Positions 31,391 to 46,946 of a DNA stretch of 64,000 nucleotides are shown one piece after another. The DNA lies in contig LAPX01000008.1 of assembly GCA_001858525.1 (NCBI GenBank), forward strand, positions 78,138 through 142,137, read 5' to 3'. Under the pieces are notes generated by a model, which saw only the letters and a program-made list of their open reading frames with translations, had not been told where the DNA came from and made no database searches. A program made the translations under genes and the position numbers. The DNA comes from Vampirovibrio chlorellavorus. Its GTDB lineage: Bacteria > Cyanobacteriota > Vampirovibrionia > Vampirovibrionales > Vampirovibrionaceae. How positions within the stretch are numbered: the first letter of the stretch is position 1; each line of letters starts with the position of its first letter.

Positions 31391-32479
31391 TTACTGGGTC
31401 AGTTGGGCAGTACCAAATCCTGAAGCGTCGGCATGGGTACTTTGGGGGACGGCTTTTTTCTCAAACAGATAGTGAGAAACCATCCACTCGTTGCCGTTTT
31501 TGTACCCCCACAATTCCGCACAGGCCAGGAAGAATACTTTCCAGTACACCCACCATTTGGTCAGGTTTTCCGCCCCATAGGTTTGGGCCAGAATTTTTTC
31601 CACGGCCGGGCGATGTTGGTACATATTCTCTGCCCAGGCATTGGCGGTTTTTTCATAATGGGTGCCGTTCACAATCCATTGGTTGGCAATGGCCAAATCT
31701 TTCTGGAAGTACAGCAACAGATCGTTAGAGGGCATGGTACCGCCGGTGAAGAAGTAGCGGGTCAGCCAGTCGGTGCCGTCTTTATCTTCGTAGTGGTAGG
31801 TAAAAATGGGATGGGTAAAAATATGCACAAACAGCTTGCCTTCCGGCTTCAGCCAACGGTTGATTTTGGCCAGCAGTTTTTCATAGTTTTTCATGTGCTC
31901 AAACATTTCAACGGAAACCACCCGATCAAACTGACGATCGGTTTCAAAATGCACAATGTTGGCCGTCAAAATTTCCAGATTATTCAAGCCACGGGCTTTG
32001 GCCTGAGCATCGATGAAGGCCTTTTGGCTGCGGGAATTGGACACACCCACAATGGTGGCATTGGGATATTGCTCAGCCATCCACAGAGACAAAGAGCCCC
32101 AGCCGCAGCCCAATTCCAGAATGGTTTGCCCGTCCTGTAAATCGGCCCGCTGACAGCTCAGAGCCAACATGGTTTCCTCGGCCTCTCCCAAAGTACGGGT
32201 GGATTCGGTCCAGTAGGCGCTGCTGTATTTTTTACGCGGCCCCAGCACCAAATCGAAAAACTCGCTGGGGACTTCGTAATGCTGCTCGTTGGCGGCTTCG
32301 GTTTCAATGGCGATGGGACTGCTTTTTAATTCAGCCACAAAATCCATAACAGCTTGCTGACGTGCTTCCCAGGAGGACTTGCTTTCTTCCTTCACTTTTT
32401 GGGCCAGCATATTGCGAATGCCCCAGCGAATGACCGCATCGGGCAGCAGATTGGTTTCCAGTAGTTTGTAAATCCACAT
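31391..32479 (-). CDS. cyclopropane-fatty-acyl-phospholipid synthase-family SAM methyltransferase (short form)
   Basis: 362 aa; SAM motif I ILELGCGWGSL, plus HYEVPSEFF and YSSAYW motifs typical of the CMAS family. Confidence 0.8.
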   Translation of the reverse strand: MWIYKLLETNLLPDAVIRWGIRNMLAQKVKEESKSSWEARQQAVMDFVAELKSSPIAIETEAANEQHYEVPSEFFDLVLGPRKKYSSAYWTESTRTLGEAEETMLALSCQRADLQDGQTILELGCGWGSLSLWMAEQYPNATIVGVSNSRSQKAFIDAQAKARGLNNLEILTANIVHFETDRQFDRVVSVEMFEHMKNYEKLLAKINRWLKPEGKLFVHIFTHPIFTYHYEDKDGTDWLTRYFFTGGTMPSNDLLLYFQKDLAIANQWIVNGTHYEKTANAWAENMYQHRPAVEKILAQTYGAENLTKWWVYWKVFFLACAELWGYKNGNEWMVSHYLFEKKAVPQSTHADASGFGTAQLTQ

Positions 32480-32524
32480 CGGGCAAAATCCTTATGAAGT
32501 GCTTAAAAATTTTAAAGATGGAAA

Positions 32525-33343
32525 TTATGAGGGCTTCCGCTTGGGAAACCAGGGAATAAACGGGCTGGTGCTTTCCTGATATTGCCGGTAAGCCTCTCCC
32601 TTGGTTTTGATGGCTTGGGCCTCCGTGGCGGCCACCCCGCTGAATTTGGTCAGGAACAACAGCATAATCAAGGGGCTGTAAAAGGTGGTCCATCCACCGG
32701 GGGCGCCCAAGGCCAGAAGGTAATAGCCCATCCACTGCAACCATTCACAAAAGTAATTGGGATGACGGGAATAGGCCCACAAGCCGCTTTGGCAGACTTT
32801 ACCCTTGTTTTCGGGTTGATCTTTAAAGTGCTTGAGTTGCTGATCGGCCACCGCTTCAAAAATCAGGCCCACCGCCCAAACCAGAATCGCCACCCATTGA
32901 ATGGGGCTGAAGGTGGGGCTGGCGTTTTGGGCCGCAAACAAAAACGGACTGGACACAATCAACATCAGCACACCCTGAAACAGGTACACTCCGAAAAACA
33001 GCCACGGCGATTTTTCAGGGCCCCACAGTTCCCGCAGGGCATGGTAGCGGCCATCCTCTTCCGGGTGGGTGGCAATGACCCGCTTCAGTAAGTACCATGC
33101 CAGGCGCCAACTGCTGGCGGTGGCTATCAGCAGCATCACTGTTTTTTGTAGAGAAGCTCCCTGCCCCAGCCAGAAATAAGTGCCCGCAATCAGGCTAAAC
33201 CCAAAGGCCCAGGCCACATCCACAATACCCGCGTTTTTCAGCGGATTGGCAATGGCCGTCACCACCAGCATCAGCCCCAGAATGACCAGAGCCGCACTAC
33301 TGAGTAAGGGCCAGACTTGAGATACGCTCAAAAGCTCAAACAT
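32525..33343 (-). CDS. DUF1295 / steroid-5-alpha-reductase-like membrane protein
   Basis: 272 aa, polytopic; SGLWAYSRHPNYFCEWLQWMGYY matches the conserved C-terminal motif of DUF1295/ICMT-like proteins. Confidence 0.75.
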   Translation of the reverse strand: MFELLSVSQVWPLLSSAALVILGLMLVVTAIANPLKNAGIVDVAWAFGFSLIAGTYFWLGQGASLQKTVMLLIATASSWRLAWYLLKRVIATHPEEDGRYHALRELWGPEKSPWLFFGVYLFQGVLMLIVSSPFLFAAQNASPTFSPIQWVAILVWAVGLIFEAVADQQLKHFKDQPENKGKVCQSGLWAYSRHPNYFCEWLQWMGYYLLALGAPGGWTTFYSPLIMLLFLTKFSGVAATEAQAIKTKGEAYRQYQESTSPFIPWFPKRKPS

Positions 33344-33683
33344 GGCGCTCTACCCGTTTTAAAAAAACATCTTCGGCGGTAGCGGTGGTGGGCAGGCGGA
33401 ATAATAGAATCAGCATGTACAGGGCCATGGTCACGTTGCCCCAGGCCACAATCAGCAGGAACCACACAATGCGGCTAACCCAGGTACGCTCACGGGCACA
33501 CACCCACAGACCAAAGGCGATGATGGCCAGGTACGCATCGGAAACCGTGGCGATAAACCACACGTCACTGCTGACCACCGGCGGAATCTGAAACAGGGAC
33601 TCATTCAGCATGGCCCAGCTGACCAGGGTGGTTTGCACCACAAACACCAGCAAGAACCAGATGCGCAAACTCCAAATTAGCAT
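33336..33683 (-). CDS. small polytopic membrane protein (possibly DUF1475-like)
   Basis: Start placed at ATG 33683, which has an AAGGAG SD. 115 aa with 3-4 TM helices. The stop overlaps the downstream gene start by 8 nt. The ORF opens at 33767. Confidence 0.5.
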   Translation of the reverse strand: MLIWSLRIWFLLVFVVQTTLVSWAMLNESLFQIPPVVSSDVWFIATVSDAYLAIIAFGLWVCARERTWVSRIVWFLLIVAWGNVTMALYMLILLFRLPTTATAEDVFLKRVERHV

Positions 33684-33708
33684 AGCGAGAGGCTCCTTTC
33701 CGGTTGAC

Positions 33709-35013
33709 CTACAAAGCCTGCCAAAGAGACAGGTTGTTGGGATTGGTATAAATGGCCTGCACCACACTAATGTTGCGCATGCGGAAGGCCGCTTTGCAGT
33801 ACATCAGGTAGTAATTCCACTTGCGAATAAAACGCTCATCAAAGCCTTGTCTGCGCACTTCGCTCAAGTTTGCGTTGAAAGCGTCGTACCAAAGTTGCAG
33901 GGTTTTGGCGTAGCTGTTGCCCAGATCTTCCAGATCGTGGAGAAACAGATTACCGGTGCGGTTGATGGCCTGATTGACCCGCCCCACGGACGGCAACAGG
34001 GAACCGGGAAAAATATGCTTCTGGATAAAATCCACGTTGTTTTTCAGCAATTCATAGCGGCTATCCGGGCAGGTAATGTACTGAATGCTCAACAGACCAT
34101 GCGGTTTGAGTAGCCTTGAACACTGGGCGAAATAGGTATCCATATAGGCATCGCCCACTGCTTCCAGCATTTCAATGGACACAATTTTATCGTACTGCCC
34201 ACTCAATTTGCGGTAATCCTGCAAGTGGACAGTAATTTGGTCACTCAATCCGGCTTGAGCAATACGGGCTGTGGCCAGTTTGAATTGCTCCTCAGAGATG
34301 GTAGTGGTATCGATGGTGCAACCGTAATTGCGGGCGGCGTGCATGGCAAAGCCCCCCCAGCCGGTGCCGATTTCCAGCACTCGATCGTGAGGCTTCAATT
34401 GCAGTTTTTGGCATAGGGCATCGTATTTGCTGATTTGAGCCTGCTCCAGCGATTGCTCCGGGTGGGTGAAGCGGGCCGAGGAATAGGTCATGGTGGGGTC
34501 CAAAAAGATCTGGAAAAATTCGTTCCCCAAGTCATAATGCTCGTGGATATTTTTCTTGCTGTTATCCACGTTGTTAGCGCGCAGCAGGTGATAGACCCGG
34601 TTCAGCTTGCCCAGCAGGTTCACCCAAAACACTTTGTTTTTGGAGCCTTCCAGCACCGTGGAATCTTCAATATTCAGGATGAACCAGGCAATGACCGCTT
34701 CCAGATCGGGGGTTTCCCATTCGCCGTCCAGAAAGGCTTCGGCAAAGCCAATGTGGCCGTACTGAATAATGCGGCTGAAGCAACGATCATCGGTGACCTG
34801 AATGGCTGCCTGAAAAGGACTGTCGGGTTCTTGCCCGATGGGGTAAACACTGCCGTCCTCAAAATACAGGGTCAGTTGCCCTTTGCGCATCGACGATAAT
34901 AGTTTGATCACCGTTTTGGCCGACCAGGACAAGTTTTTGGGCAAGCCAGGAATCGCATGCAGATGGACGTTTTCCTGAGTTTGCGGGGTGCTTTGGCGTT
35001 CCAGGGTCTTCAA
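33709..35013 (-). CDS. cfa: cyclopropane-fatty-acyl-phospholipid synthase family protein (long form)
   Basis: 434 aa; HYDLGNEFF, YSSARF and VLEIGTGWGGFAMHAA motifs of the CMAS family. Confidence 0.85.
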   Translation of the reverse strand: MKTLERQSTPQTQENVHLHAIPGLPKNLSWSAKTVIKLLSSMRKGQLTLYFEDGSVYPIGQEPDSPFQAAIQVTDDRCFSRIIQYGHIGFAEAFLDGEWETPDLEAVIAWFILNIEDSTVLEGSKNKVFWVNLLGKLNRVYHLLRANNVDNSKKNIHEHYDLGNEFFQIFLDPTMTYSSARFTHPEQSLEQAQISKYDALCQKLQLKPHDRVLEIGTGWGGFAMHAARNYGCTIDTTTISEEQFKLATARIAQAGLSDQITVHLQDYRKLSGQYDKIVSIEMLEAVGDAYMDTYFAQCSRLLKPHGLLSIQYITCPDSRYELLKNNVDFIQKHIFPGSLLPSVGRVNQAINRTGNLFLHDLEDLGNSYAKTLQLWYDAFNANLSEVRRQGFDERFIRKWNYYLMYCKAAFRMRNISVVQAIYTNPNNLSLWQAL

Positions 35014-35861
35014 GGCCGGGCCTCCTGTTGTGCGTAAAATTGTTGTAAATCGTGTCTGGGTCGCAGGACTTGCCGCTGATTAAACAACTGGGCGTCCTTT
35101 AAATGGAGTGGCAAGCGCTTGATCCAGAGAATAAAAGCGTGCCAGTGAATCAGCGTAATCACCTGCCAGGTCATCAACGGGTAACGCAGACTGAGTCGCA
35201 GTAATTGGCTGTCGGTCAACGGGTGTTTTTCTCCCCGAAAGCCACTGTCCAGAAGTGTTTGTTCACCGGCCAAACTGGACACCTGACAATGAATGCTATC
35301 ACCCGGCGGGCTCACCTGAAAGCGAAACCGCTGATCCAGTTGAGAATAGGGAGAGACGTAAAAATACTTGATGAGTTCACTGGAAAAAGCATGAATTTGA
35401 TTATCGGTAGGATTGAGAATCGGAAACACTTTCATTTCCCGAAAGGTATTCTCCACCTGGGCGAGACTGCCCAGGCAACGCCCCGCGTCATCAAAGGCAA
35501 AGTACAGGCTAATGGGATTAAACACATAGCCCAGGGTACGCATATTGGTGAGCAAGCCAATTTTAGCAATGGATTTTTGAAGCTCGTCCTGAAGCCCGTG
35601 TGCCTCAAACGCCTCTTGAAACGCCTGAATCGCCCGATCTTTTAGCGATGCGCCAACCGATGTGGGCAGATGATCCGATTCCCGAAATTCATAAAAAGCC
35701 CGTCGCCCAATCTTGAAACACTTGAACCGATCGATCAGTTGGGGCAGCTCATCCAAATCCAGATAAAAGAAAAAAGTGCGATTCTGAAAATCATGCTTCT
35801 TGGGGGCCAGGCGCCGGTGATAAACCTGGCACTCATACAGGCAAGAGTTTAACGCCGCCAT
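35010..35861 (-). CDS. DUF1365 family protein
   Basis: 283 aa; N-terminal YECQVYHRRLAPKKHDFQNRTFFFYLDLDEL is typical of DUF1365. Sits in the canonical position between the FAD oxidoreductase and the CFA synthase, with 4-nt overlaps. Confidence 0.75.
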   Translation of the reverse strand: MAALNSCLYECQVYHRRLAPKKHDFQNRTFFFYLDLDELPQLIDRFKCFKIGRRAFYEFRESDHLPTSVGASLKDRAIQAFQEAFEAHGLQDELQKSIAKIGLLTNMRTLGYVFNPISLYFAFDDAGRCLGSLAQVENTFREMKVFPILNPTDNQIHAFSSELIKYFYVSPYSQLDQRFRFQVSPPGDSIHCQVSSLAGEQTLLDSGFRGEKHPLTDSQLLRLSLRYPLMTWQVITLIHWHAFILWIKRLPLHLKDAQLFNQRQVLRPRHDLQQFYAQQEARP

Positions 35862-37159
35862 GCCAGTGTCTCCACCAGTTGGCTGCTCAGGTTGAGCGCA
35901 GCGGTAAAGGCATCTTCATGAAAGCCGTATTTAAAATAACTGCCACAAAAATAAATGTGGGTTTGCTGCCCTTCCGCATTGAGCTGAGACAGTTGATCCT
36001 GAGCGGCCACAGCGGGTTCATCGAAAATTGGATGCTCATAGGGAATGGTTTGCCGAATGCTATCCGGACGCATCCAGTTTTGCCCGTTGATAGACACAAT
36101 GTAATCCTGCTTTTGGGACACCCCTTGCAGACTATTCATCCAGTAGTGGGTAGCGGCGTCATATAAAATATCGGGATTCTGGGGATCGGGCTTGGCAGAT
36201 TTAATTTGATAATTCCAGGAGGCCCGGCAGCGTTTAGTGGTGGGAAGCACTGAGGCATCGGTGTGAAGGGTGGCCAGATTGCTTTCATAGCGAAACGGGG
36301 TCAGCAAGCGCTGTTGCAATTCGGTAGGTTGGCTCAGGGTGGCCAGCGATTGATCGGCATGGCAGGCCAAAATAACCGCATCAAACTCGCGCGTCTCAGT
36401 CTGCCCATCGGGGCCTTGGGCTTGCACGCGCACCGTTCCACCCGCGTTGGCAGTCACGGCCTGCACCGTGCGATTCAACAAGATCTCTGGCTGACACAGG
36501 GCCAGAAGTTTGCGCACATAGGTGCGGGCTCCGCCATCCACGGTATACCACTGAAAGTGGGTATCCAGCCCCAAAAAGCCATGGTTGTGAAAAAAGCGAA
36601 TGAGGGTGCGGGCCGGAAATTTGAGCATTTTGTGCGGGGCCGTGGACCAAATGGCGGAACTCATGGGCACCATAAACAACTCCAGAAAATCCTGCCCGTA
36701 GCCTCGCTCAGTAATCAGTTCCGCCACGGTCAGGGTGTTGTAGCGGGGATTATCCAGATTATCCAGGGCTTCTTTGGTAAAGCGATCCATTTGTTGAACC
36801 ATGCGCCAAAAGCGGGGATTGAAGATATTTTTGCGCTGGCCGAACAGCTTGTTCAGCCCGGCCCCGTTCCACTCCAGCCCATGGGTATCATGGCGAACGC
36901 TAAAGGACATATCGGTGGGCTTGATGGGAATGTCCAGCGTTTCAAACAGCTTCAGCAGGTTAGGGTAAGTGACTTTGTTGAAGACCATAAAGCCCGTATC
37001 CACAGGCAGCCGCTTGCCGTCCTCTTCCACGTCCACCGTATTGGTGTGCCCGCCCACATAGTCGTTTTTTTCGTAGAGGGTAATTTGATACTGCTGGTGC
37101 AAAAAATACATGCAACCCAGCCCGGAAATCCCACTGCCGATAATGGCCAAGCGCTTCAT
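35849..37159 (-). CDS. NAD(P)/FAD-dependent oxidoreductase (amine-oxidase/phytoene-desaturase-like)
   Basis: 436 aa; MKRLAIIGSGISGLGCMYFL...YEKNDYVGGHTNT dinucleotide-binding fold. Confidence 0.85.
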   Translation of the reverse strand: MKRLAIIGSGISGLGCMYFLHQQYQITLYEKNDYVGGHTNTVDVEEDGKRLPVDTGFMVFNKVTYPNLLKLFETLDIPIKPTDMSFSVRHDTHGLEWNGAGLNKLFGQRKNIFNPRFWRMVQQMDRFTKEALDNLDNPRYNTLTVAELITERGYGQDFLELFMVPMSSAIWSTAPHKMLKFPARTLIRFFHNHGFLGLDTHFQWYTVDGGARTYVRKLLALCQPEILLNRTVQAVTANAGGTVRVQAQGPDGQTETREFDAVILACHADQSLATLSQPTELQQRLLTPFRYESNLATLHTDASVLPTTKRCRASWNYQIKSAKPDPQNPDILYDAATHYWMNSLQGVSQKQDYIVSINGQNWMRPDSIRQTIPYEHPIFDEPAVAAQDQLSQLNAEGQQTHIYFCGSYFKYGFHEDAFTAALNLSSQLVETLAWRR

Positions 37160-38106
37160 CGATTTTGGCTTTCCTGCTGCTGATGACTGACAACATACGC
37201 TTCCGCTGGCACCGGATTGAGGCTATGCACCAGGCCCACCCAGGACATTAGCTTGAGGATGTAAAAGGTCACATCATACTCCCACCAGAAGAAGCCCTGA
37301 CGCACCGAGTTCTGGTAGAAATGATGGTTGTTGTGCCAGCCTTCCCCCAAGGTCAAAATGGCCAGCCAGGGGTTGTTGCGACTGTCATCCGGGGTGTTGT
37401 AGCGCCGGGAACCAAACTTGTGAGACAACGAATTAATGGTGCAAGTCCCGTGAAACAGGATCACGGTGCTGACGAAGAAGCCCCAAATCAGGCATTGAAG
37501 GCCATTGGTGCCCAGGCCGGGAAAGGCGGATTCCAGCCAAGCGCCCAGCGCATACAAGGCAATGGCGTAAAGGGCAGGCACCACCCAATCAAAGCGATTC
37601 AACCAAACCAGCTCCGGAAAGCGAGTCCAGTCCTTAATGAGAGTGTAATCCGTTTGCAGATTGGCGGGCACCGTCATCCAGCCAATGTGCGATTGCAGCA
37701 GGCTTTCCCGCACCGGGGAATGGGGATCACCGGGCTGATCGGAGTAACGGTGATGACGCCGGTGGTGAGAGGCCCACCACAGGGGGCCGCGCTGCACTGA
37801 TGTCATGGCCCACACGGCAAAAATAAACTGCTGAAGCCGCCCGGTTTGAAAGGTTCGATGGGAAAAATAGCGGTGATAAAAGGCGGTAATGGCAAACATG
37901 CGCACCCAGTACAAGGCCAAGGTCAACCCCACCACAAAGGGGGACCATCCGCAGACGAACACACCCAACATACCCCCATGTAAAAAGGCAAAGGGAATCC
38001 AGCGAGACCACTCCTGGGACCACTCGGACGGGTTGGACGGTGAAGCGACTGTAGAAGGGTCTTTAACGCTGTAATCACTGTCCAGGATTTTTAAAATCGT
38101 GCTCAT
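37156..38106 (-). CDS. membrane fatty-acid (acyl-CoA/acyl-lipid delta-9-type) desaturase
   Basis: 316 aa; three His boxes (HRYFSHR, HRRHHRYSD, HNNHHFY) and four TM helices. Confidence 0.85.
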   Translation of the reverse strand: MSTILKILDSDYSVKDPSTVASPSNPSEWSQEWSRWIPFAFLHGGMLGVFVCGWSPFVVGLTLALYWVRMFAITAFYHRYFSHRTFQTGRLQQFIFAVWAMTSVQRGPLWWASHHRRHHRYSDQPGDPHSPVRESLLQSHIGWMTVPANLQTDYTLIKDWTRFPELVWLNRFDWVVPALYAIALYALGAWLESAFPGLGTNGLQCLIWGFFVSTVILFHGTCTINSLSHKFGSRRYNTPDDSRNNPWLAILTLGEGWHNNHHFYQNSVRQGFFWWEYDVTFYILKLMSWVGLVHSLNPVPAEAYVVSHQQQESQNR

Positions 38107-38908: not shown

Positions 38909-38981
38909 GGGGGCGTAGCTCAGTTGGTAGAGCGCCTGCTTTGCACGCAGGATGTCGCGGGTTCAATTCCTGTCGCCTCCA
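38909..38981 (+). tRNA. tRNA-Ala (anticodon UGC)
   Basis: Hand-folded 73-nt cloverleaf: acceptor GGGGGCG/CGCCUCC with the G3:U70 Ala identity pair, D-arm GCUC-AGUUGGUA-GAGC, anticodon arm CCUGC-UUUGCAC-GCAGG, T-arm GCGGG-UUCAAUU-CCUGU, discriminator A. CCA is not encoded. Confidence 0.95.
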
Positions 38982-38994
38982 CTTTAGACTTGAT

Positions 38995-40475: not shown

Positions 40476-41129
40476 ATGTTGGGAGTGTTGTTCTCTGTGT
40501 CCTCTTCCCCAAAAAATCTGCGAAAATCTGCAACCCAACTGCGCAAAGGCTTTACCCTGGCCGAGTTGCTGATTTCTCTGGCCATACTGGGGGTGATTGC
40601 CACCTTTACCATCCCCAAAATATTGATCAGCCAGCAAAATAGCCAGAACGTGGCCAAGGCCAAAGAAGCGGTTGCCATGGTTTCAGAAGCCTATATCAAG
40701 TTCAAGGCGGAGAATACGGTCACTACAAGCTTCAATATAAGCTCTTTAACGCCCTATATGAATTATGTAAGGGAGGACACTACCTCCAGTATTGATTATA
40801 CTCCCGGCTTCGCCTCGTTTAGCTGTAGTGCTTTCATTCCCTGTCTGAAGTTGCATGATGGTGCTATGTTTGCCTATGGTGCCACTGATCGATTTTGCGG
40901 CCTGGATAACACAGGTGCTGTATTTTTTTATGTTGATCCGGATGGCGTTTACGGGAATGGGGGAACCGCAGACGGACCCAGCAAGAGCGTGGTTTTCTGG
41001 CTCTATCCTGATGGGCGCATTACCACTTTCGGCACCCTGCTCCCAGGAACTTTATCAGGGCCTTCTGGTTGTGTATCGACCTGGTTCTTCACTCCATCCT
41101 ACGATCCTTCCTGGTTTAACTGGAACTGA
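40476..41129 (+). CDS. type IV pilin / pseudopilin-like protein, paralog 1
   Basis: Prepilin cleavage/methylation motif KG|FTLAELLISLAILGVIATFTIPKIL with Glu+5. C-terminus YDPSWFNWN. The leader is long from the ATG; GTG 40497 is a possible start. Confidence 0.8.
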   Translation: MLGVLFSVSSSPKNLRKSATQLRKGFTLAELLISLAILGVIATFTIPKILISQQNSQNVAKAKEAVAMVSEAYIKFKAENTVTTSFNISSLTPYMNYVREDTTSSIDYTPGFASFSCSAFIPCLKLHDGAMFAYGATDRFCGLDNTGAVFFYVDPDGVYGNGGTADGPSKSVVFWLYPDGRITTFGTLLPGTLSGPSGCVSTWFFTPSYDPSWFNWN

Positions 41130-41144: not shown

Positions 41145-41232
41145 CCGAAAAATGCCCCTCAAGTTTTTTCGCTGCTGGTCGATAGAGTCATAAAGTAGAT
41201 AACAATCCTCAGGAGTTCGGAGAATGTTCGCA
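41145..41232 (+). repeat. 88-bp direct repeat copy A (pilin 5' region, SD and first three codons)
   Basis: ccgaaaaatgcccctcaagttttttcgctgctggtcgatagagtcataaagtagataacaatcctcaggagttcggagaatgttcgca is identical to 41853-41940. Confidence 0.95.
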
Positions 41233-41835
41233 AGTTCCCGCACCCGCAAGGTTCTAACCCGTCGCCGGGGCTTTACCCTGGCCGAACTGTTAATCTCTCT
41301 AGCCATTCTGGGGGTGATTGCCACGTTTACCATCCCTAAAATTCTCTCCGCCCAACAAAATAGCCAGTACAACGCAATGAGTAAAGAAGTAATCGCCTCC
41401 ATTGCTGAGGCCTACCAGCAGCATAAGCTGGCGGGTTTACTCACCACCAGCACTAAACCGTCTGACTTTTCACAATACATGAACTATCTTTCTCTGGATA
41501 CGACAACCACCATTGATGATGGCATTGGCGCCGGTGCACAAACCTGCAACGCGACCAACAGCAAATGTGTGCGGCTGGCCAATGGGGGACTTTTGTATTT
41601 TGCCGATTGGGCCTCATTTTCGGGCTCTAGTAATTTGAGTGCGGCCCAGTTCTCCTTTGATCCCAATGGCAAGCTGGATCCCATCGGCTCTCCTCAAAAA
41701 GGAAACCTCTGGATTTTCGTTTACTACAACGGTAAAGTGACAATTTATGGCAATCTTGATCCTGGCACCTTATCCACGGACGCGATTCGAAATCCAGAGC
41801 CCTCTAGAACGCCCCCCTGGTTTAGCTGGAACTAA
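41224..41835 (+). CDS. type IV pilin / pseudopilin-like protein, paralog 2
   Basis: MFASSRTRKVLTRRRG|FTLAELLISLAILGVIATFTIPKIL. AGGAG SD. C-terminus PPWFSWN. Confidence 0.85.
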   Translation: MFASSRTRKVLTRRRGFTLAELLISLAILGVIATFTIPKILSAQQNSQYNAMSKEVIASIAEAYQQHKLAGLLTTSTKPSDFSQYMNYLSLDTTTTIDDGIGAGAQTCNATNSKCVRLANGGLLYFADWASFSGSSNLSAAQFSFDPNGKLDPIGSPQKGNLWIFVYYNGKVTIYGNLDPGTLSTDAIRNPEPSRTPPWFSWN

Positions 41836-41852: not shown

Positions 41853-41940
41853 CCGAAAAATGCCCCTCAAGTTTTTTCGCTGCTGGTCGATAGAGTCATA
41901 AAGTAGATAACAATCCTCAGGAGTTCGGAGAATGTTCGCA
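41853..41940 (+). repeat. 88-bp direct repeat copy B
   Basis: Perfect copy of 41145-41232, placed upstream of pilin paralog 3. Confidence 0.95.
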
Positions 41941-42526
41941 GGTACCCCCCCCCCACCCCCGCAAAGTTCTAACCCGTCGCCGGGGCTTTACCCTGGCCGA
42001 GTTGCTCATTTCTCTGGCCATACTAGGGGTGATTGCCACCTTTACCATCCCTAAAATACTGGTGGCTCAACAGAATCAACAAAAAAATGCACAGGCAAAA
42101 GAAGCAGCCGCCATGATTGCAGCGGCATATGACGCTTATAAAACCCAAAACCCTGTGCCGGTTGGCTTTAAGCCTTCTGATCTGCTTCCTTACATGAATT
42201 ATGTGGCTTTAGTCACTGATGGCCGTACTGTTGACTGGACACCGTTTTATGCTGCCTTAAGTTGCACCAGTGGAGCCCCTTGCGTTATATTGCATGGTGG
42301 TGCAATCCTGAGAATGCGTGACGGCTTGCCTTTTGATGCTGTAAATTCTACAACCCCTTTAGAGTTCATTTATGACCCAGACGGGGTGTATAGCGGTTCC
42401 ACGGCTGATAGCCCCGGGAAATCCGTCCAATTTGAACTTTACTATAATGGCAAACTCACTTCCCGCGCTTTTTCCGAGCGGTATGGTACCGGGCCGTATG
42501 ATCCTTCCTGGTTTAACTGGAACTAA
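41932..42526 (+). pseudogene. type IV pilin-like paralog 3, frameshifted in the leader at a C10 tract (phase-OFF as sequenced)
   Basis: ATG 41932 (same SD and first codons as paralog 2) is out of frame by 1 nt with RRRGFTLAELLISLAILGVIATFTIPKIL (GGC TTT at 41984). Deleting one C gives MFAGTPPHPRKVLTRRRGFTLAELL. The track ORF only starts at TTG 42002, after the cleavage site. Confidence 0.7.
41945..41960 (+). repeat. homopolymeric tract C10-A-C5
   Basis: ggtaCCCCCCCCCCaCCCCCg read directly from the sequence. Confidence 0.95.
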
Positions 42527-42925: not shown

Positions 42926-44656
42926 TTACCAGTAGCCACGCACCGGAACTTTTTTCTGCGGCGGCTTCGGCTTGGGCTTCACCAGCATAATTTTAGCGGG
43001 TGGTGCTGGCGGAGGCGCCGGAGGTGTCTTTTTCTGGATGATGGGCAGCGGCGAACGGGCCAGGAAGATGGAACGGTTGTAGTTCAGCACGTTGCCCGCA
43101 TTGGGAGGCAGGGTATCGCCCAGACTGCCATACTCTTTGGGGTACAAGGGGAATAAAGGAGTTTCAGGCGGCTTGGGCGGAGGCGAGCAAGTGCCACCAC
43201 CGGCGCAAAGCGGTTTTGGGGTCACATGAATTTCACCGGGGGCCCCACAAGCACCACCGGCACCGGGCGTAGCACAACCGCAGGCGCTGCTGGTAGAGGC
43301 GTTTCCGCCTTGACCCCCACTGCCACCGTTGACGTTCACGTTGTTCAATACATCTTGTCCGGGCTCGCCGTGGAAAAAGACCTTGCCGCCGTTGCCAGCG
43401 TCGCCGCCATTACCGGCCACCGCAATTTGGTGAACCGGCTGACCTTGATAGTCGGTCTCGTTGGCCTGGGCCTCCTGGCCGTTACCGCCATTGCCACCGA
43501 CCACTTCAATGGTGCCGTTGTTGCTGATACTGGTGTTGAAAGCCACCCGGACTTCCCCACCGTTGCCACCCCGGCCGCCATTTTGACCGAGAGATACTTG
43601 CTGGTAGCTGACATTCCCGTGCTCATCCACGGTGTCGCTCACGGGGCCTTCTTCCACATTGGGATTGGTGCCGCCATTACCGCCATTGGCCGTCAACTGG
43701 CCATCGTTACTCACAGCGCTGGTATCGGAACCAAAGTTCACTACACCGCCGTTACCCCCGTTGCTGGGGCTATAACCGTTGAATCCGTTGCCACCATCGG
43801 CACTGATGCGACCGGCGTTGCTGACGCTGGTGGTTGCCACGACAGCCACAGAACCGCCATTACCGGCATCGACACCGCTGTCGCCATCGGCCCCGTTGGC
43901 CGTGACTTTTGCGTTGCTGCCCACAGCAATTTCAGAACCATAAATGCCAACCGTGCCGCCATTGCTACCGGCGCTCAGACCGTTGGCCATGACCACGCCA
44001 TCCAGATTGACAATACTGCCGGAAATCTGGATCACGTTGGCGTTGTAACCGCCCACATAATTCCCGGAAGCGTCAATGACCGCCCCGTTGGGAATGGTCA
44101 CCTGACCAGTGGCATTCAAATTAATTTGTCCGGGCAAGGCATTCACCCCGGTGGCCAAGGCCTCAATGCGAGAACCGGGGTCCACAGTCAGCTGCCCCAC
44201 GTTGATAACAATGGTTCCGCCATTTAAACCATTGGCAAAAATGTTACCGCTTTGAACCAGAGCGCCAGCGTCAATGGTGACTTTACCACCATTGCCCAAA
44301 TAAGCGCCATTGGCTCCCAGAGCCGCACTGGCATCAATGGTGCCATCAACCCGCATAACGCCACCTTGAGCGTCAAAGTGCAGGTGGCCGCCGTTTCCGG
44401 TTAAATCGCCGTTGTTGTTCACTTCCAGACCACGCACGGTGGTTCCGGCGCCCACAATAATATCGCCGTTGTTGGTGAATGTGGTTTTGTTGCCCTGGGT
44501 GTTGAAATAGGTTCCACCAGCCACGTTTTCACCGTAGTTGGTACTATTGGTATCGCCGGGAGCGGCAGTAGAAAGGGGAAGATTGGCAAGCAGCATACTG
44601 GCAGCTAGCGAAATCGCTACCGTCAGGCGGCCAGTGGGGCGGTTAAACAAAGCCAT
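42926..44656 (-). CDS. secreted Gly/Asn-rich parallel beta-helix repeat exoprotein (putative TpsA-like cargo)
   Basis: Start placed at ATG 44656 with an AAGGAG SD. Signal peptide MALFNRPTGRLTVAISLAASMLLANLPLSTAAP. Many turns end in GGNGG/NGGNGG. Cys cluster (SSACGCATPGAGGACGAPG...CAGGGTC) and a Pro/Lys-rich tail ending RGYW. Divergent from the ShlB-type gene. Confidence 0.7.
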   Translation of the reverse strand: MALFNRPTGRLTVAISLAASMLLANLPLSTAAPGDTNSTNYGENVAGGTYFNTQGNKTTFTNNGDIIVGAGTTVRGLEVNNNGDLTGNGGHLHFDAQGGVMRVDGTIDASAALGANGAYLGNGGKVTIDAGALVQSGNIFANGLNGGTIVINVGQLTVDPGSRIEALATGVNALPGQINLNATGQVTIPNGAVIDASGNYVGGYNANVIQISGSIVNLDGVVMANGLSAGSNGGTVGIYGSEIAVGSNAKVTANGADGDSGVDAGNGGSVAVVATTSVSNAGRISADGGNGFNGYSPSNGGNGGVVNFGSDTSAVSNDGQLTANGGNGGTNPNVEEGPVSDTVDEHGNVSYQQVSLGQNGGRGGNGGEVRVAFNTSISNNGTIEVVGGNGGNGQEAQANETDYQGQPVHQIAVAGNGGDAGNGGKVFFHGEPGQDVLNNVNVNGGSGGQGGNASTSSACGCATPGAGGACGAPGEIHVTPKPLCAGGGTCSPPPKPPETPLFPLYPKEYGSLGDTLPPNAGNVLNYNRSIFLARSPLPIIQKKTPPAPPPAPPAKIMLVKPKPKPPQKKVPVRGYW

Positions 44657-45080
44657 GGAAACGCATACTCCTTGAAAGTGGGTGGCCAAAAGCAGGGTGA
44701 GGATCAAAATGGAAGCTTCGAATTATTTTTAATAAGAATATTCAAGTGTGAATCATACATTAAAAATTTTGGAAGGCAACCAGTCCATGCCAAATGGCTT
44801 TGAGGCGCGCATGAGAGGGGTCTTTTTTCATTCCGAAAGATATGACTTTTGTAATGTTTCTTTGTCAAGCTATTTTTTTAATTTACTTTTAGTTTTGATT
44901 TCCTATAATACGCTAGACCTAAAAAAGTCTTTTGTTTTTTGACTCACTCATTTATCCACAGCCTCGCTTGAGTCACGCACCTTATATAGAGAAGGGTCTC
45001 CCTTTCTCAAAATCCCCTCTTTATATTTAGCCCCTTCAGTCACCAAGCTCACTCCCCCATTCAACACCCAATCCAAAAGG

Positions 45081-46946
45081 ATGCCTTCCCTTATGAGATC
45101 CGATTTACACCGCTCGGTTGTTATTCTTTCCAGTCTGCTAACCCTGCTGCCCGCTTCAGCCATGGCCCAGGTTTATCCCTCCCAAGCCAATCCGGGCTCC
45201 CTTATCGGCCCTCAAGGCGGATCGTTTTACTTTCCGGCCACCCCTTCAACCGGCGCCTCTCAGACCGCCCCGGTGCAAGAGCAGGATCCAGACGGCATTC
45301 GGGTGGAAGCACAGCCCCCCATCGTGCAAGTCACCAGCGATTTGTTTCAGGTGGACCGGGTGGATGTGGAAGGCAACACCATTGTTTCCAACGAGGAAAT
45401 GCGCCGCTTGGTGGTGGGTTACGAAGGCCGTAAACTAAGCCCCGAAGATTTGGCCCAGTTGGTACAAGGCATTAACGAGGAATACCGCAAACGGGGTTAC
45501 CTGACCTCGCTGGCCTTCATTCCCCCGCAAAATCTGGAACGGGGAGCCATCACCGTCAAGGTGCTGGAAGGCATCGTAGGCGATATGGAAGTGAGCGGTA
45601 ACAAGTACTTTAAGGCCAAGGTCATTGAAAAACGCATCAGCGAAACTCCCGGCCAACCGCTGAACATTCCCGCATTAGAGCAGGAGTTGCTGCGCATTAA
45701 CCGCCAGGAACCCTACCGGGTCAAGGCCACCCTGCTGCCGGGCGAACGCACCGGGGAAACCAAAATCCGTCTGGATGTCAAAGAGCAACAGCCCTTTCAG
45801 CTGGCTCTGACTTCCGATAACGCCGGTCGTCCCTTTATTGGGCTGTATCGCTGGGGCGCCGAATTCACCGACCGTAACGTCAGTGGCCGTGGCGATCGCT
45901 TTAACCTCCGCTACATCGGCTCCACCGGTTCCACCATTGCCTCGACCTCCTACACCTTGCCGGTGGGCAGCAAAGGCACCGAAATCAGCGGTTTGTTTGG
46001 CTTTAGCCACGTGAACGTGGATTTACGCTTGCCCAACCAGCCCGAGTTGATTGGGAATGCCTACAACTACGGCCTGTTAGTCACCCAGCCTTTGGGTAAA
46101 GAGCGGGTCTGGAGCACCGACCTGGGCCTGAACGCCCGCCGGGTCAGCAGCTTTTTTGATGGCGACAAGACCAGCACCGATGATATTCGCTCCCTGGCCC
46201 TGGGTTTAAACTTCGACAAATATGACCGCTACGGTCGTTCCTTCTCTCGCGCGCAGGTGACCCTGGCCCCCCAGTGGCTGGGTGCCAACACCAGCTTCTT
46301 CAAGCTGGAAAACTACCTGACCCGAGTGACCCGTCTGCCCAAAAACAACCTCCTGATCCTGCGGGGATACTCCCAGTGGAGTCCTGACGCTCTGCCCGCT
46401 ATCGAACAATTCCAGCTGGGCGGCATTAACAGCGTGCGTGGTTACACCCAAGGGGCCATGATTGGCGATAAAGGTTACAACATCGGTGCGGAATGGCGTT
46501 ACCCGCTACCGTTCCTCTCCAACGTCAGCCCCTGGCTGAGCGAGCGTGTGCAAGGCGCCCTGTTTGCCGATTACGGTCAGGTCTGGCGCGACAAGAGCAG
46601 CCCCTTCTACAGCAGCAGCGCCGCCACCTCCATGCTCAGCGCCGGTTTCGGATTGCGGGCCCACATCACCGATTACGCCCAGGGCTACCTGGATGTGGCC
46701 TTTGGCTTGCTGAATCGCAAGAACGAAGAACCGTTCCGCAACCAGCCCACCGCCCGGATTCACTTCGGGGTGCGTAGTGAACTGTTGCCCAACGATTACA
46801 AGAGCCGCACCGACAAGGTGACCCCCATCAAGGCCAACGCCCCTCGGGTCCGCAGTGTGGGCAATATTCAGGCTGGCGACTTGCAGACGGACATTGCTGA
46901 CCCCACGCTTGAATCCATCGATATGTTGAAACCCCGGATTCGATAG
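45081..46946 (+). CDS. ShlB/FhaC/HecB-family two-partner-secretion outer-membrane transporter (TpsB)
   Basis: 621 aa; signal peptide (SVVILSSLLTLLPASAMAQ), POTRA region (FQVDRVDVEGNTIVSNEEM...YRKRGYLTSLAFIPPQNLERGAITVKVLEGIVGDMEVSGN), then a beta-barrel. Confidence 0.85.
   Translation: MPSLMRSDLHRSVVILSSLLTLLPASAMAQVYPSQANPGSLIGPQGGSFYFPATPSTGASQTAPVQEQDPDGIRVEAQPPIVQVTSDLFQVDRVDVEGNTIVSNEEMRRLVVGYEGRKLSPEDLAQLVQGINEEYRKRGYLTSLAFIPPQNLERGAITVKVLEGIVGDMEVSGNKYFKAKVIEKRISETPGQPLNIPALEQELLRINRQEPYRVKATLLPGERTGETKIRLDVKEQQPFQLALTSDNAGRPFIGLYRWGAEFTDRNVSGRGDRFNLRYIGSTGSTIASTSYTLPVGSKGTEISGLFGFSHVNVDLRLPNQPELIGNAYNYGLLVTQPLGKERVWSTDLGLNARRVSSFFDGDKTSTDDIRSLALGLNFDKYDRYGRSFSRAQVTLAPQWLGANTSFFKLENYLTRVTRLPKNNLLILRGYSQWSPDALPAIEQFQLGGINSVRGYTQGAMIGDKGYNIGAEWRYPLPFLSNVSPWLSERVQGALFADYGQVWRDKSSPFYSSSAATSMLSAGFGLRAHITDYAQGYLDVAFGLLNRKNEEPFRNQPTARIHFGVRSELLPNDYKSRTDKVTPIKANAPRVRSVGNIQAGDLQTDIADPTLESIDMLKPRIR

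Follow-up and report, generated by a model that had tools for sequence, protein, structure and literature searches.

A poly-C tract in the leader-coding region of a Vampirovibrio chlorellavorus pilin gene: a candidate phase-variation switch

The stretch of Vampirovibrio chlorellavorus DNA considered in this work, 64,000 nucleotides of contig LAPX01000008.1 (assembly GCA_001858525.1, positions 78,138 to 142,137; hereafter the window), carries three tandem genes for prepilin-type proteins on the plus strand. Only one of the three, the last in the array (paralog 3), has an uninterrupted run of ten cytosines (C10), placed between its start codon and the region that encodes the mature pilin. We hold, with a shade better than even confidence, that paralog 3 is a pilin gene gated by a slippage-prone poly-C tract in its leader-coding region; on the best reading of its state under phase variation, the gene would at present be in the off configuration. 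What is described here is most likely a familiar type of switch in an unfamiliar lineage.

The product of paralog 3 is a surface or interaction determinant of the type IV pilin family. Its prepilin signature, RRRG/FTLAELLISLAILGVIATF (the slash marks the peptidase cleavage site), has the glycine at -1, the phenylalanine at +1, the glutamate at +5 and the hydrophobic helix of a class III signal. The Pfam family PF07963 matches paralogs 1 and 2, and TIGR02532 matches paralog 3 in its C9 form with 30.9 bits against a cut-off of 16.3. A profile of the family matches type IV pilins of known structure in their N-terminal part, for example PilE1 (8pfb, E 4e-8); the globular domain of these pilins gave no match to any named family. 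V. chlorellavorus possesses a complete set of genes for type IV pili, and pili are visible near its flagellum (PMC4451040).

The leader of paralog 3 and its frame states

From its start codon, paralog 3 reads ATG TTC GCA GGT A, then C10, A and C5. The codon for Gly-1 of the motif RRRG/FTLAELL, a GGC at 41984-41986, lies 52 nt beyond the ATG at 41932, and since 52 mod 3 is 1, the ATG and the prepilin cleavage codon are out of frame by one base. The pilin frame itself is open from the TAG at 41891-41893, with the translation SHKVDNNPQEFGECSQVPPPHPRKVLTRRRG/FTL. Between that stop and the TTG at 42002 it contains no ATG, GTG or TTG, nor any ATT, ATC, ATA or CTG, and this TTG, the first in the pilin frame, is 3' of the cleavage site. 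Without a downstream start codon to fall back on, the gene is left with a single productive frame out of three. The preliminary description of this DNA had read the tract, the 52-nt offset and the want of an alternative start in just this way, and its further claim, that removal of a single C makes the leader colinear with that of paralog 2, was borne out as well. The C9 form, built in silico, is a prepilin of 197 residues, MFAGTPPHPRKVLTRRRG/FTLAELL and onward. The C12 form has 198 residues. The C8 and C11 forms stop after 12-13 codons; in all, C8, C10, C11 and C13 give truncated products, and C9 and C12 are in frame. The positions of these and the other features are collected in Table 1.

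Downstream of the tract, the gene is in good order. The mature coding sequence of 543 nt has no second lesion, the single lesion being inside the tract, and every invariant column of a 48-sequence alignment of the family is retained.

The tract is also exceptional in its surroundings. No other homopolymer in the 64,000 bases exceeds 7, and an independent-base model predicts about 0.09 C runs of at least 10. In the 21 trusted open reading frames (ORFs) of the window, proline runs never exceed PP and CCC makes up 45% of the proline codons, so codon usage does not produce a C10. No other noteworthy simple-sequence repeats were seen in the 64-kb window. By the G/C criterion of PhasomeIt (at least 9 units), the C10 run counts as a hypermutable simple-sequence repeat, and since it lies 3' of the sole start codon and 5' of the cleavage site, a change of one unit alters the expression product.

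One may ask whether the frame break is an error of consensus or assembly, in which case the true tract would be C9 or C12, or the reads mixed, and paralog 3 would be a plain expressed pilin gene with a proline-rich leader. We consider this unlikely. The lesion does amount to a single base within the tract with the remainder of the gene intact, and G/C homopolymers of at least 10 are hard on every sequencing platform. Against it, the other long genes of the window are intact: the large ones, among them those for SecA, HtpG and the cyclopropane-fatty-acyl-phospholipid synthases, match Pfam profiles end to end, which argues that the assembly is not generally prone to frameshifts. The public gene call for the locus (P0001) is a protein of 165 residues that starts at GTG 42029, so the deposited assembly carries the same break. 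Exact-sequence lookup in the protein collection found no match for the repaired C9 and C12 proteins, nor was any exact match on record for paralog 2 or for paralog 3 started at the TTG.

Table 1. Features of the pilin array in the window and of related loci (L numbers)
Feature	Position	Strand	Remarks
Paralog 1, intact prepilin	40476-41129	+	Different upstream region, no tract; Pfam N_methyl match
Paralog 2, intact prepilin	41224-41835	+	Same cassette as paralog 3; Pfam N_methyl match
Sigma-28-type promoter-like motif of paralog 2	41159-41185	+	
Degenerate tract of paralog 2, AGTTCCCGCACCCG (also given as TCCCGCACCCG)	41233-41246	+	Stably in frame
5' cassette of paralog 3 (promoter motif, 5' untranslated region, Shine-Dalgarno sequence, ATG TTC GCA)	41853-41940	+	88 nt, 100% identical to 41145-41232
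Sigma-28 (FliA)-type promoter-like motif of paralog 3, TCAAGTTT-N11-GTCGATAG	41867-41893	+	
Shine-Dalgarno sequence AGGAG of paralog 3	41919-41923	+	8 nt 5' of ATG
ATG of paralog 3	41932-41934	+	Sole start codon usable by paralog 3; read from sequence
40-codon ORF MFAGTPPPPPQSSNPSPGLYPGRVAHFSGHTRGDCHLYHP, then stop	41932-42054	+	ATG product in the C10 state; TAA within the N-terminal-helix coding region
C10 homopolymer, candidate slipped-strand tract	41945-41954	+	C9 or C12 brings the pilin frame back
A and C5 after the tract	41955; 41956-41960	+	Resembles a break in a once-longer C tract; compare C6TC5, L001 gene 2
Gly-1 codon, mature pilin region (FTLAELLISLAILGVIATFTIPK... to DPSWFNWN) and stop	41984-42526	+	Intact; stop at 42524-42526
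Long-leader regions, L001	3178-3348; 4001-4171		
Long-leader region, L164	1458-1629		
Long-leader regions, L165	635-801; 1457-1623		
Long-leader regions, L167	1457-1622; 2258-2420		
Tract of L001 gene 1			C11; upstream ATG in pilin frame
Tract of L001 gene 2			C6TC5; upstream ATG in pilin frame
Tract of L164			C12; upstream ATG out of pilin frame
Tract of L165 genes 1 and 2			C8; upstream ATG out of pilin frame
Tract of L167 gene 1, closest homologue of paralog 3			C8; upstream ATG out of pilin frame
Tract of L167 gene 2, same as L168 and L169			C7; upstream ATG out of pilin frame
Tract of L163, short leader			C8; upstream ATG in pilin frame

The upstream cassette

Paralogs 2 and 3 share their Shine-Dalgarno sequence and first three codons, as had been noted before, and these prove to lie inside an identical run of 88 nt that also holds a promoter-like motif. 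The mature proteins of the two paralogs are only 46% identical. The motif of paralog 3, TCAAGTTT-N11-GTCGATAG, can be set beside the FliA (sigma-28) consensus TAAAGTTT-N11-GCCGATAA (PMC7286023); in this comparison of sequences, 7 of 8 and 6 of 8 positions match. A generalized form, A[AG]GTTT[TC]-N11-[TC]CGATA, was counted 23 times over 374 kb of loci of the pilin family, and 20 of these occurrences are on the sense strand and within 300 nt 5' of a pilin cleavage motif. It is found upstream of family pilins at L003, L008, L011, L013, L027, L033 and L088, and also at L091, L092, L162, L165 and L167-L169. From this pattern we infer that the motif is a FliA-type promoter with a 5' untranslated region of about 30 nt, in which case C10 would span about +43 to +52 of the predicted messenger RNA (mRNA). 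If so, these pilins may belong to the late regulon of flagella and motility.

One locus with the motif, L011 from a Vampirovibrionales metagenome-assembled genome, deserves a separate word. Its family pilin gene has a C9 run (2396-2404) in the spacer of the FliA-like motif at 2388-2412, and this spacer is N12, whereas N11 is usual. In the sister gene at 2960, a C5 run goes with a spacer of N11. The ATG stands almost directly 3' of the -10-like element, which suggests a leaderless mRNA. The C9 run could be read as a candidate simple-sequence-repeat switch of the transcriptional kind.

The state of paralog 3 might alternatively be plain pseudogenisation, that is, a one-base expansion of the tract that permanently silenced a redundant paralog with no selected switching. 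Two intact paralogs stand next to it and would make the loss tolerable, genomes carry several copies each of this large pilin family, so gene death is to be expected in it, and one tract state has been observed for this organism. We nevertheless find this explanation improbable. The gene has all of its invariant residues and a mature coding sequence free of a second lesion, and its 88-nt cassette of promoter, Shine-Dalgarno sequence and ATG is still 100% identical to that of its working neighbour. The uninterrupted tract, too, has been retained at the homologous site in lineages with no more than 41-58% identity between their mature pilins. Without selection, point mutations should break such a tract, as happened in gene 2 of L001 (C6TC5) and in paralog 2 of the window.

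How the tract could act

Under the phase-variation reading, paralog 3 would probably be transcribed from the sigma-28-type promoter about 30 nt 5' of the ATG, and ribosomes would begin at ATG 41932 with AGGAG as the Shine-Dalgarno sequence. With C9 or C12 they would read through MFAGTPP(P)HPRKVLTRRRG/FTLAELL to give a prepilin that can be processed. With C10, as sequenced, or C13 they would make a nonsense peptide of 40-41 residues, and with C8 or C11 they would stop after 12-13 codons. A C gained or lost in replication by slipped-strand mispairing would thus turn paralog 3 on or off stochastically, while paralogs 1 and 2, which have no slippage tract, would stay on. The population would be a mixture of cells with different pilin repertoires, and the likely benefit would be in attachment to prey or surfaces, or in escape from pilus-specific phages.

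The same layout could in principle be one of recoding, in which a +1 slip of the ribosome on CCC-C, or a slip of RNA polymerase, yields a constitutively low and possibly regulated amount of pilin. The pilin frame is indeed +1 to the ATG frame, and the codons of the tract (ACC CCC CCC CCA CCC CCG) contain the slippery CCC-C, a classic +1-prone site. Consecutive prolines are known to stall ribosomes. In E. coli, a CCC-C beside the start codon gives about 1% +1 frameshifting, and more when m1G37 is lacking (PMC4519876). Programmed sites, however, keep one out-of-frame configuration, and the homologues considered below are found in frame, at +1 and at -1. There is also no stimulatory RNA structure, as the predicted fold of 41900-42010 has z = +0.85. 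Slippage in transcription, for its part, is documented mainly at runs of A or T. Recoding therefore has, in our judgement, a slim chance of being the right account.

Several more specific ideas were considered and set aside. A gene with a programmed +1 frameshift was rejected because the out-of-frame layout is not conserved among the homologues and a structured stimulator is missing. RNA structure that would sequester the Shine-Dalgarno sequence or stimulate frameshifting near the tract was dismissed on the same z value. A G-quadruplex on the template strand (G5TG10), similar to that of Neisseria pilE, was discarded because C10 cannot give four runs of G3 and the relatives have single runs. 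Retention of the tract for the sake of a functional polyproline leader was rejected too, for tracts persist in each of the three frames and encode a different peptide at each length.

Homologous tracts in related genomes

For the repaired paralog 3 protein, 1,198 homologues were found, and the best match other than itself is 58% identical. Among the matches listed, the sole name that bears an organism is 'pilus assembly FimT family protein [Vampirovibrio chlorellavorus]', and the GTDB loci with a full-length match are mostly Vampirovibrionales or Melainabacteria metagenome-assembled genomes (MAGs), which points to a Vampirovibrionales-like organism as the source of the window. It is worth pointing out in passing that many copies of this pilin family also occur in GTDB genomes labelled Coleofasciculaceae (DATNPJ01: L005, L008, L014 and L027) and Oculatellaceae (DATNQC01: L018, L022-L024 and L030). 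The presence of Vampirovibrionales-type pilins in genomes with cyanobacterial titles suggests mislabelled or mixed bins, or a predator that was binned together with filamentous cyanobacteria.

Several homologues have proline-rich leaders, and at the DNA level these correspond to AGGAG-N7-ATG-(G)TA-poly-C-GAAATCG.CAAACCCCGG, with the AGGAG conserved among the cassettes of the relatives. A comparison of the tract in related genomes and MAGs, which the preliminary description had proposed as a check, favoured a hypervariable tract: it is present at the homologous site with lengths from C7 to C12, both in and out of frame (Table 1). The leader most similar to that of the window is MFLCPPPPRKRLKITRG of P0009, where the tract is seen at the protein level as PPPP. 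Three of the loci, L164, L165 and L167, were retrieved through proteins without polyproline and so were not picked for having a tract. The closest tract-bearing homologues are 46-58% identical to paralog 3 in the mature part, and across all tract-bearing genes the mature parts are 41-70% identical. That the same module occurs in lineages with such divergent pilins argues that the tract was inherited within a subclade.

In 367 kb of family loci, a sample of which part was selected once the tract was known, we counted 11 G/C runs of at least 8. Eight of them, including all those of at least 9, are sense-strand C runs within 220 nt 5' of a pilin cleavage site, a zone that makes up 2.2% of the strand-specific sequence. 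A search of metagenome_contigs with the degenerate pattern C8-N15-45-GGNTTYACN... returned 0 matches; the pattern is suspected to be poorly handled, and this result is not taken as absence. A tract universal to the family was considered as well and dropped on the strength of the GTDB and JGI genes described below. The poly-C tract is a subclade trait and not a family-wide one.

The relatives also speak to the question of assembly error, and on both sides. In-frame versions of the tract do exist among them (L001 gene 1, L166, L163 and the leader of P0009). However, out-of-frame tracts recur in independent assemblies, including the L164 call on 4 contigs, and particular lengths recur as well: C7 was seen in three samples, and three genes (L165 genes 1 and 2, and L167 gene 1) have C8.

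Variation in tract length

To look for length variants of a single gene, in-frame and out-of-frame versions were built in silico and then looked up by exact sequence in the protein collection. The predicted in-frame C11 product of the L164 gene, a protein of 245 residues, was found on 1 contig, and the out-of-frame protein call on 4 contigs. The in-frame contig is L166; it and L164 are assemblies of one population and come from two samples of one site (GROS21-1). Over 3,696 bp they differ in two places only, by C12 versus C11 in the tract and by one T/G single-nucleotide polymorphism (SNP) that lies 3 nt 5' of the ATG (L164 1455 versus L166 1498; GGTTTAATG versus GGTGTAATG). The C7 tract, in contrast to these, is the same in three samples that are 99.93% identical to each other. 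Long tracts thus vary and short tracts stay constant, as slippage predicts. On this comparative evidence, the tract is an inherited feature of variable length rather than a one-off lesion.

A second apparent case, gene 1 of L001, has calls of 243 residues on 5 contigs and of 227 residues on 3 contigs. Its 5:3 split was downgraded as evidence from populations because identical DNA in L167 and L168 was given two different starts by gene callers.

Where does this leave the claim, made at the outset from the window itself, of a slipped-strand switch? It has gained the homologous tracts of C7 to C12 and the C11/C12 pair within one population. The anatomy of paralog 3, the homology of its tract with those of relatives and the variation in length among and within related populations are observed; actual switching in the window organism, like the promoter assignment and the selective benefit, is inferred. 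Several observations weigh against the switch and should be considered together. The window organism is represented by a single assembly with one tract state, C10. The one-base difference between C11 and C12 was seen between Illumina assemblies and could be a consensus error. The accompanying T/G difference may be either a linked SNP or a sequencing error, for the change from GGT to GGG 3 nt before the ATG appears to resemble a known Illumina error pattern. The two lengths called for L001 gene 1 could come from different gene callers. When about 60 family genes were sampled without bias from GTDB and JGI, a run of at least 8 was found in L011 only. Among the relatives with long leaders, which are treated next, the upstream ATG is out of frame in most copies, and C8 appears fixed in the L165 lineage (8 contigs, as inferred from protein calls). 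In these long-leader relatives, finally, the tract may sit in a regulatory upstream ORF (uORF) and act as a modulator rather than as an on/off switch.

Relatives with long leaders

A subclade of the tract-bearing relatives has unusually long and conserved prepilin leaders of about 57 residues, with the pattern ..WLACCSSLCLKPSPWL.EKA.R.LGWLP..CH.RA..G/FTL. Where the tract sets the upstream ATG at -1, this ATG opens an ORF of 14-16 codons, and the TGA at its end shares bases with a pilin-frame ATG or GTG (ATGA/GTGA). The overlap is present in L165 genes 1 and 2 and in L167 gene 1, and also in the C10 and C13 states of L001 gene 1 and of L164. A GGAG stands 5 nt 5' of the downstream GTG or ATG, and with this second Shine-Dalgarno sequence and start placed 3' of the tract, the on/off model transfers less simply to these genes.

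It is from this arrangement that a further alternative arises, namely that the poly-C acts through RNA or peptide and not through the frame, either as a regulatory uORF (a proline-rich arrest peptide coupled to a downstream start) or as a binding site. The ATGA/GTGA overlaps just described and the apparent fixation of C8 in the L165 lineage speak for such an account. For paralog 3 it is, in our view, highly unlikely, since there is no downstream start before the cleavage site through which coupling could rescue the gene, and since the peptide made from the tract region differs with tract length.

A broader picture, which we offer as tentative and as more doubtful than the switch in paralog 3 itself, would join these observations. 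The sigma-28-type promoter, the Shine-Dalgarno sequence, the ATG and the poly-C could form a portable cassette of Vampirovibrionales that is kept identical among tandem paralogs by gene conversion, lets single pilin genes switch stochastically, and provides these predatory and non-photosynthetic relatives of cyanobacteria with a combinatorial pilus repertoire coupled to motility. Relatives with long leaders would have three possible outcomes to choose from by tract length: a full leader of 57 residues, a short uORF with a stop that overlaps the second start (translational coupling), and off. In L011, it would have moved to the promoter spacer.

Comparison with known systems

Contingency loci that work by homopolymer slippage are a textbook trait of pathogens confined to a host, Neisseria, Haemophilus, Campylobacter, Helicobacter and Bordetella among them. 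The nearest likeness is to pilC of N. gonorrhoeae and N. meningitidis, a gene for type IV pili in which a G/C homopolymer within the coding region turns expression on and off by one-base frameshifts and several copies are present (PMC5953494). The poly-G/C tract of pilC1 and pilC2 has 9-20 units inside the reading frame, and a G/C tract length of at least 9 has been used to call phase-variable loci in Neisseria (PMC5953494). PilC, however, is a pilus-associated adhesin and biogenesis protein, whereas the gene considered here encodes a pilin subunit and has its tract in the leader-coding part. Neisseria is moreover a host-restricted pathogen with measured switching, and the present case concerns a proposed switch in an environmental member of the Vampirovibrionales.

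The opa genes of Neisseria offer a second likeness, for their CTCTT/CTTCT repeats are in the region that codes for the leader peptide, so that the frame changes and the mature protein does not, as in paralog 3. They too form a family of paralogs, each gene with its own repeat, and are expressed in combination (PMC5953494). Unlike the window, with its single-base repeat, its pilins and an intact tract in one of three paralogs, opa has a pentamer repeat and encodes outer-membrane adhesins.

Poly-C/G tracts also control genes of surface filaments or adhesins in Bordetella pertussis (fim2 and fim3) and in Neisseria (opc and porA; the poly-C promoter tract of opc is cited in PMC3960869). Those tracts act on transcription through promoter spacing, whereas that of the window is 3' of the start codon and would act on the frame. 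It is the C9 of L011, in a FliA-like spacer of N12 for N11, that resembles the promoter tracts of Bordetella fim and Neisseria opc. On/off frameshifts in a short G/C homopolymer are shared with bvgS of B. pertussis (the bvg frameshift of Stibitz 1989, as listed in PMC11868660) and with the poly-G/C contingency genes of Campylobacter and Helicobacter. These are regulator, glycosylation or flagellar genes of host-adapted pathogens, unlike the pilin subunit gene described here.

The earlier remark that no description of such a locus was known for this kind of organism agrees with what we found. No report of phase variation by simple-sequence repeats turned up in full-text searches for Vampirovibrio, Melainabacteria or cyanobacterial pilins, and a 2025 review of phase variation leaves cyanobacteria unmentioned. 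The setting is the leader-coding region of a pilin subunit gene in an environmental and probably predatory member of the Vampirovibrionales. If the reading is true, bet-hedging by localised hypermutation would extend to predator-prey or phage-host interactions in a sister group of the Cyanobacteria. There would be practical consequences as well. Where a MAG from these bacteria has a truncated or 'missing' pilin gene, the gene can be an allele in the phase-off state and not a pseudogene, and tract length, which can be read from metagenomic reads, would be a possible marker of pilus state at the level of populations.

Neighbouring genes and other observations

The pilin array adjoins a gene on the minus strand (42926-44707) for a protein of 593 residues, rich in Gly, Asn and Thr repeats and with a Pro-rich C-terminus, for which no Pfam or NCBIfam match was found. 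Divergent from it is the gene for an outer-membrane transporter of the ShlB/FhaC type (POTRA_2 and ShlB; 45081-46946, plus strand). The repeat protein and the transporter may make up a pair resembling two-partner secretion beside the pilin array.

On the other side, about 1.5 kb 5' of the array, is a single transfer RNA gene, tRNA-Ala(TGC), at 38909-38982; no ribosomal RNA genes were seen beside it in the window. Further upstream, the minus-strand region 31391-38106 holds an intact, tightly overlapping cluster with two cyclopropane-fatty-acyl-phospholipid synthase genes, DUF1295, DUF1365 and a flavoprotein of the amine-oxidase type; a 316-residue ORF in the same cluster is, by reading of its sequence, a putative fatty-acid desaturase. 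The window opens (1-115) with a 51-bp tandem repeat of 2.3 copies with 92% matches, on a GC-rich, coding-like stretch.

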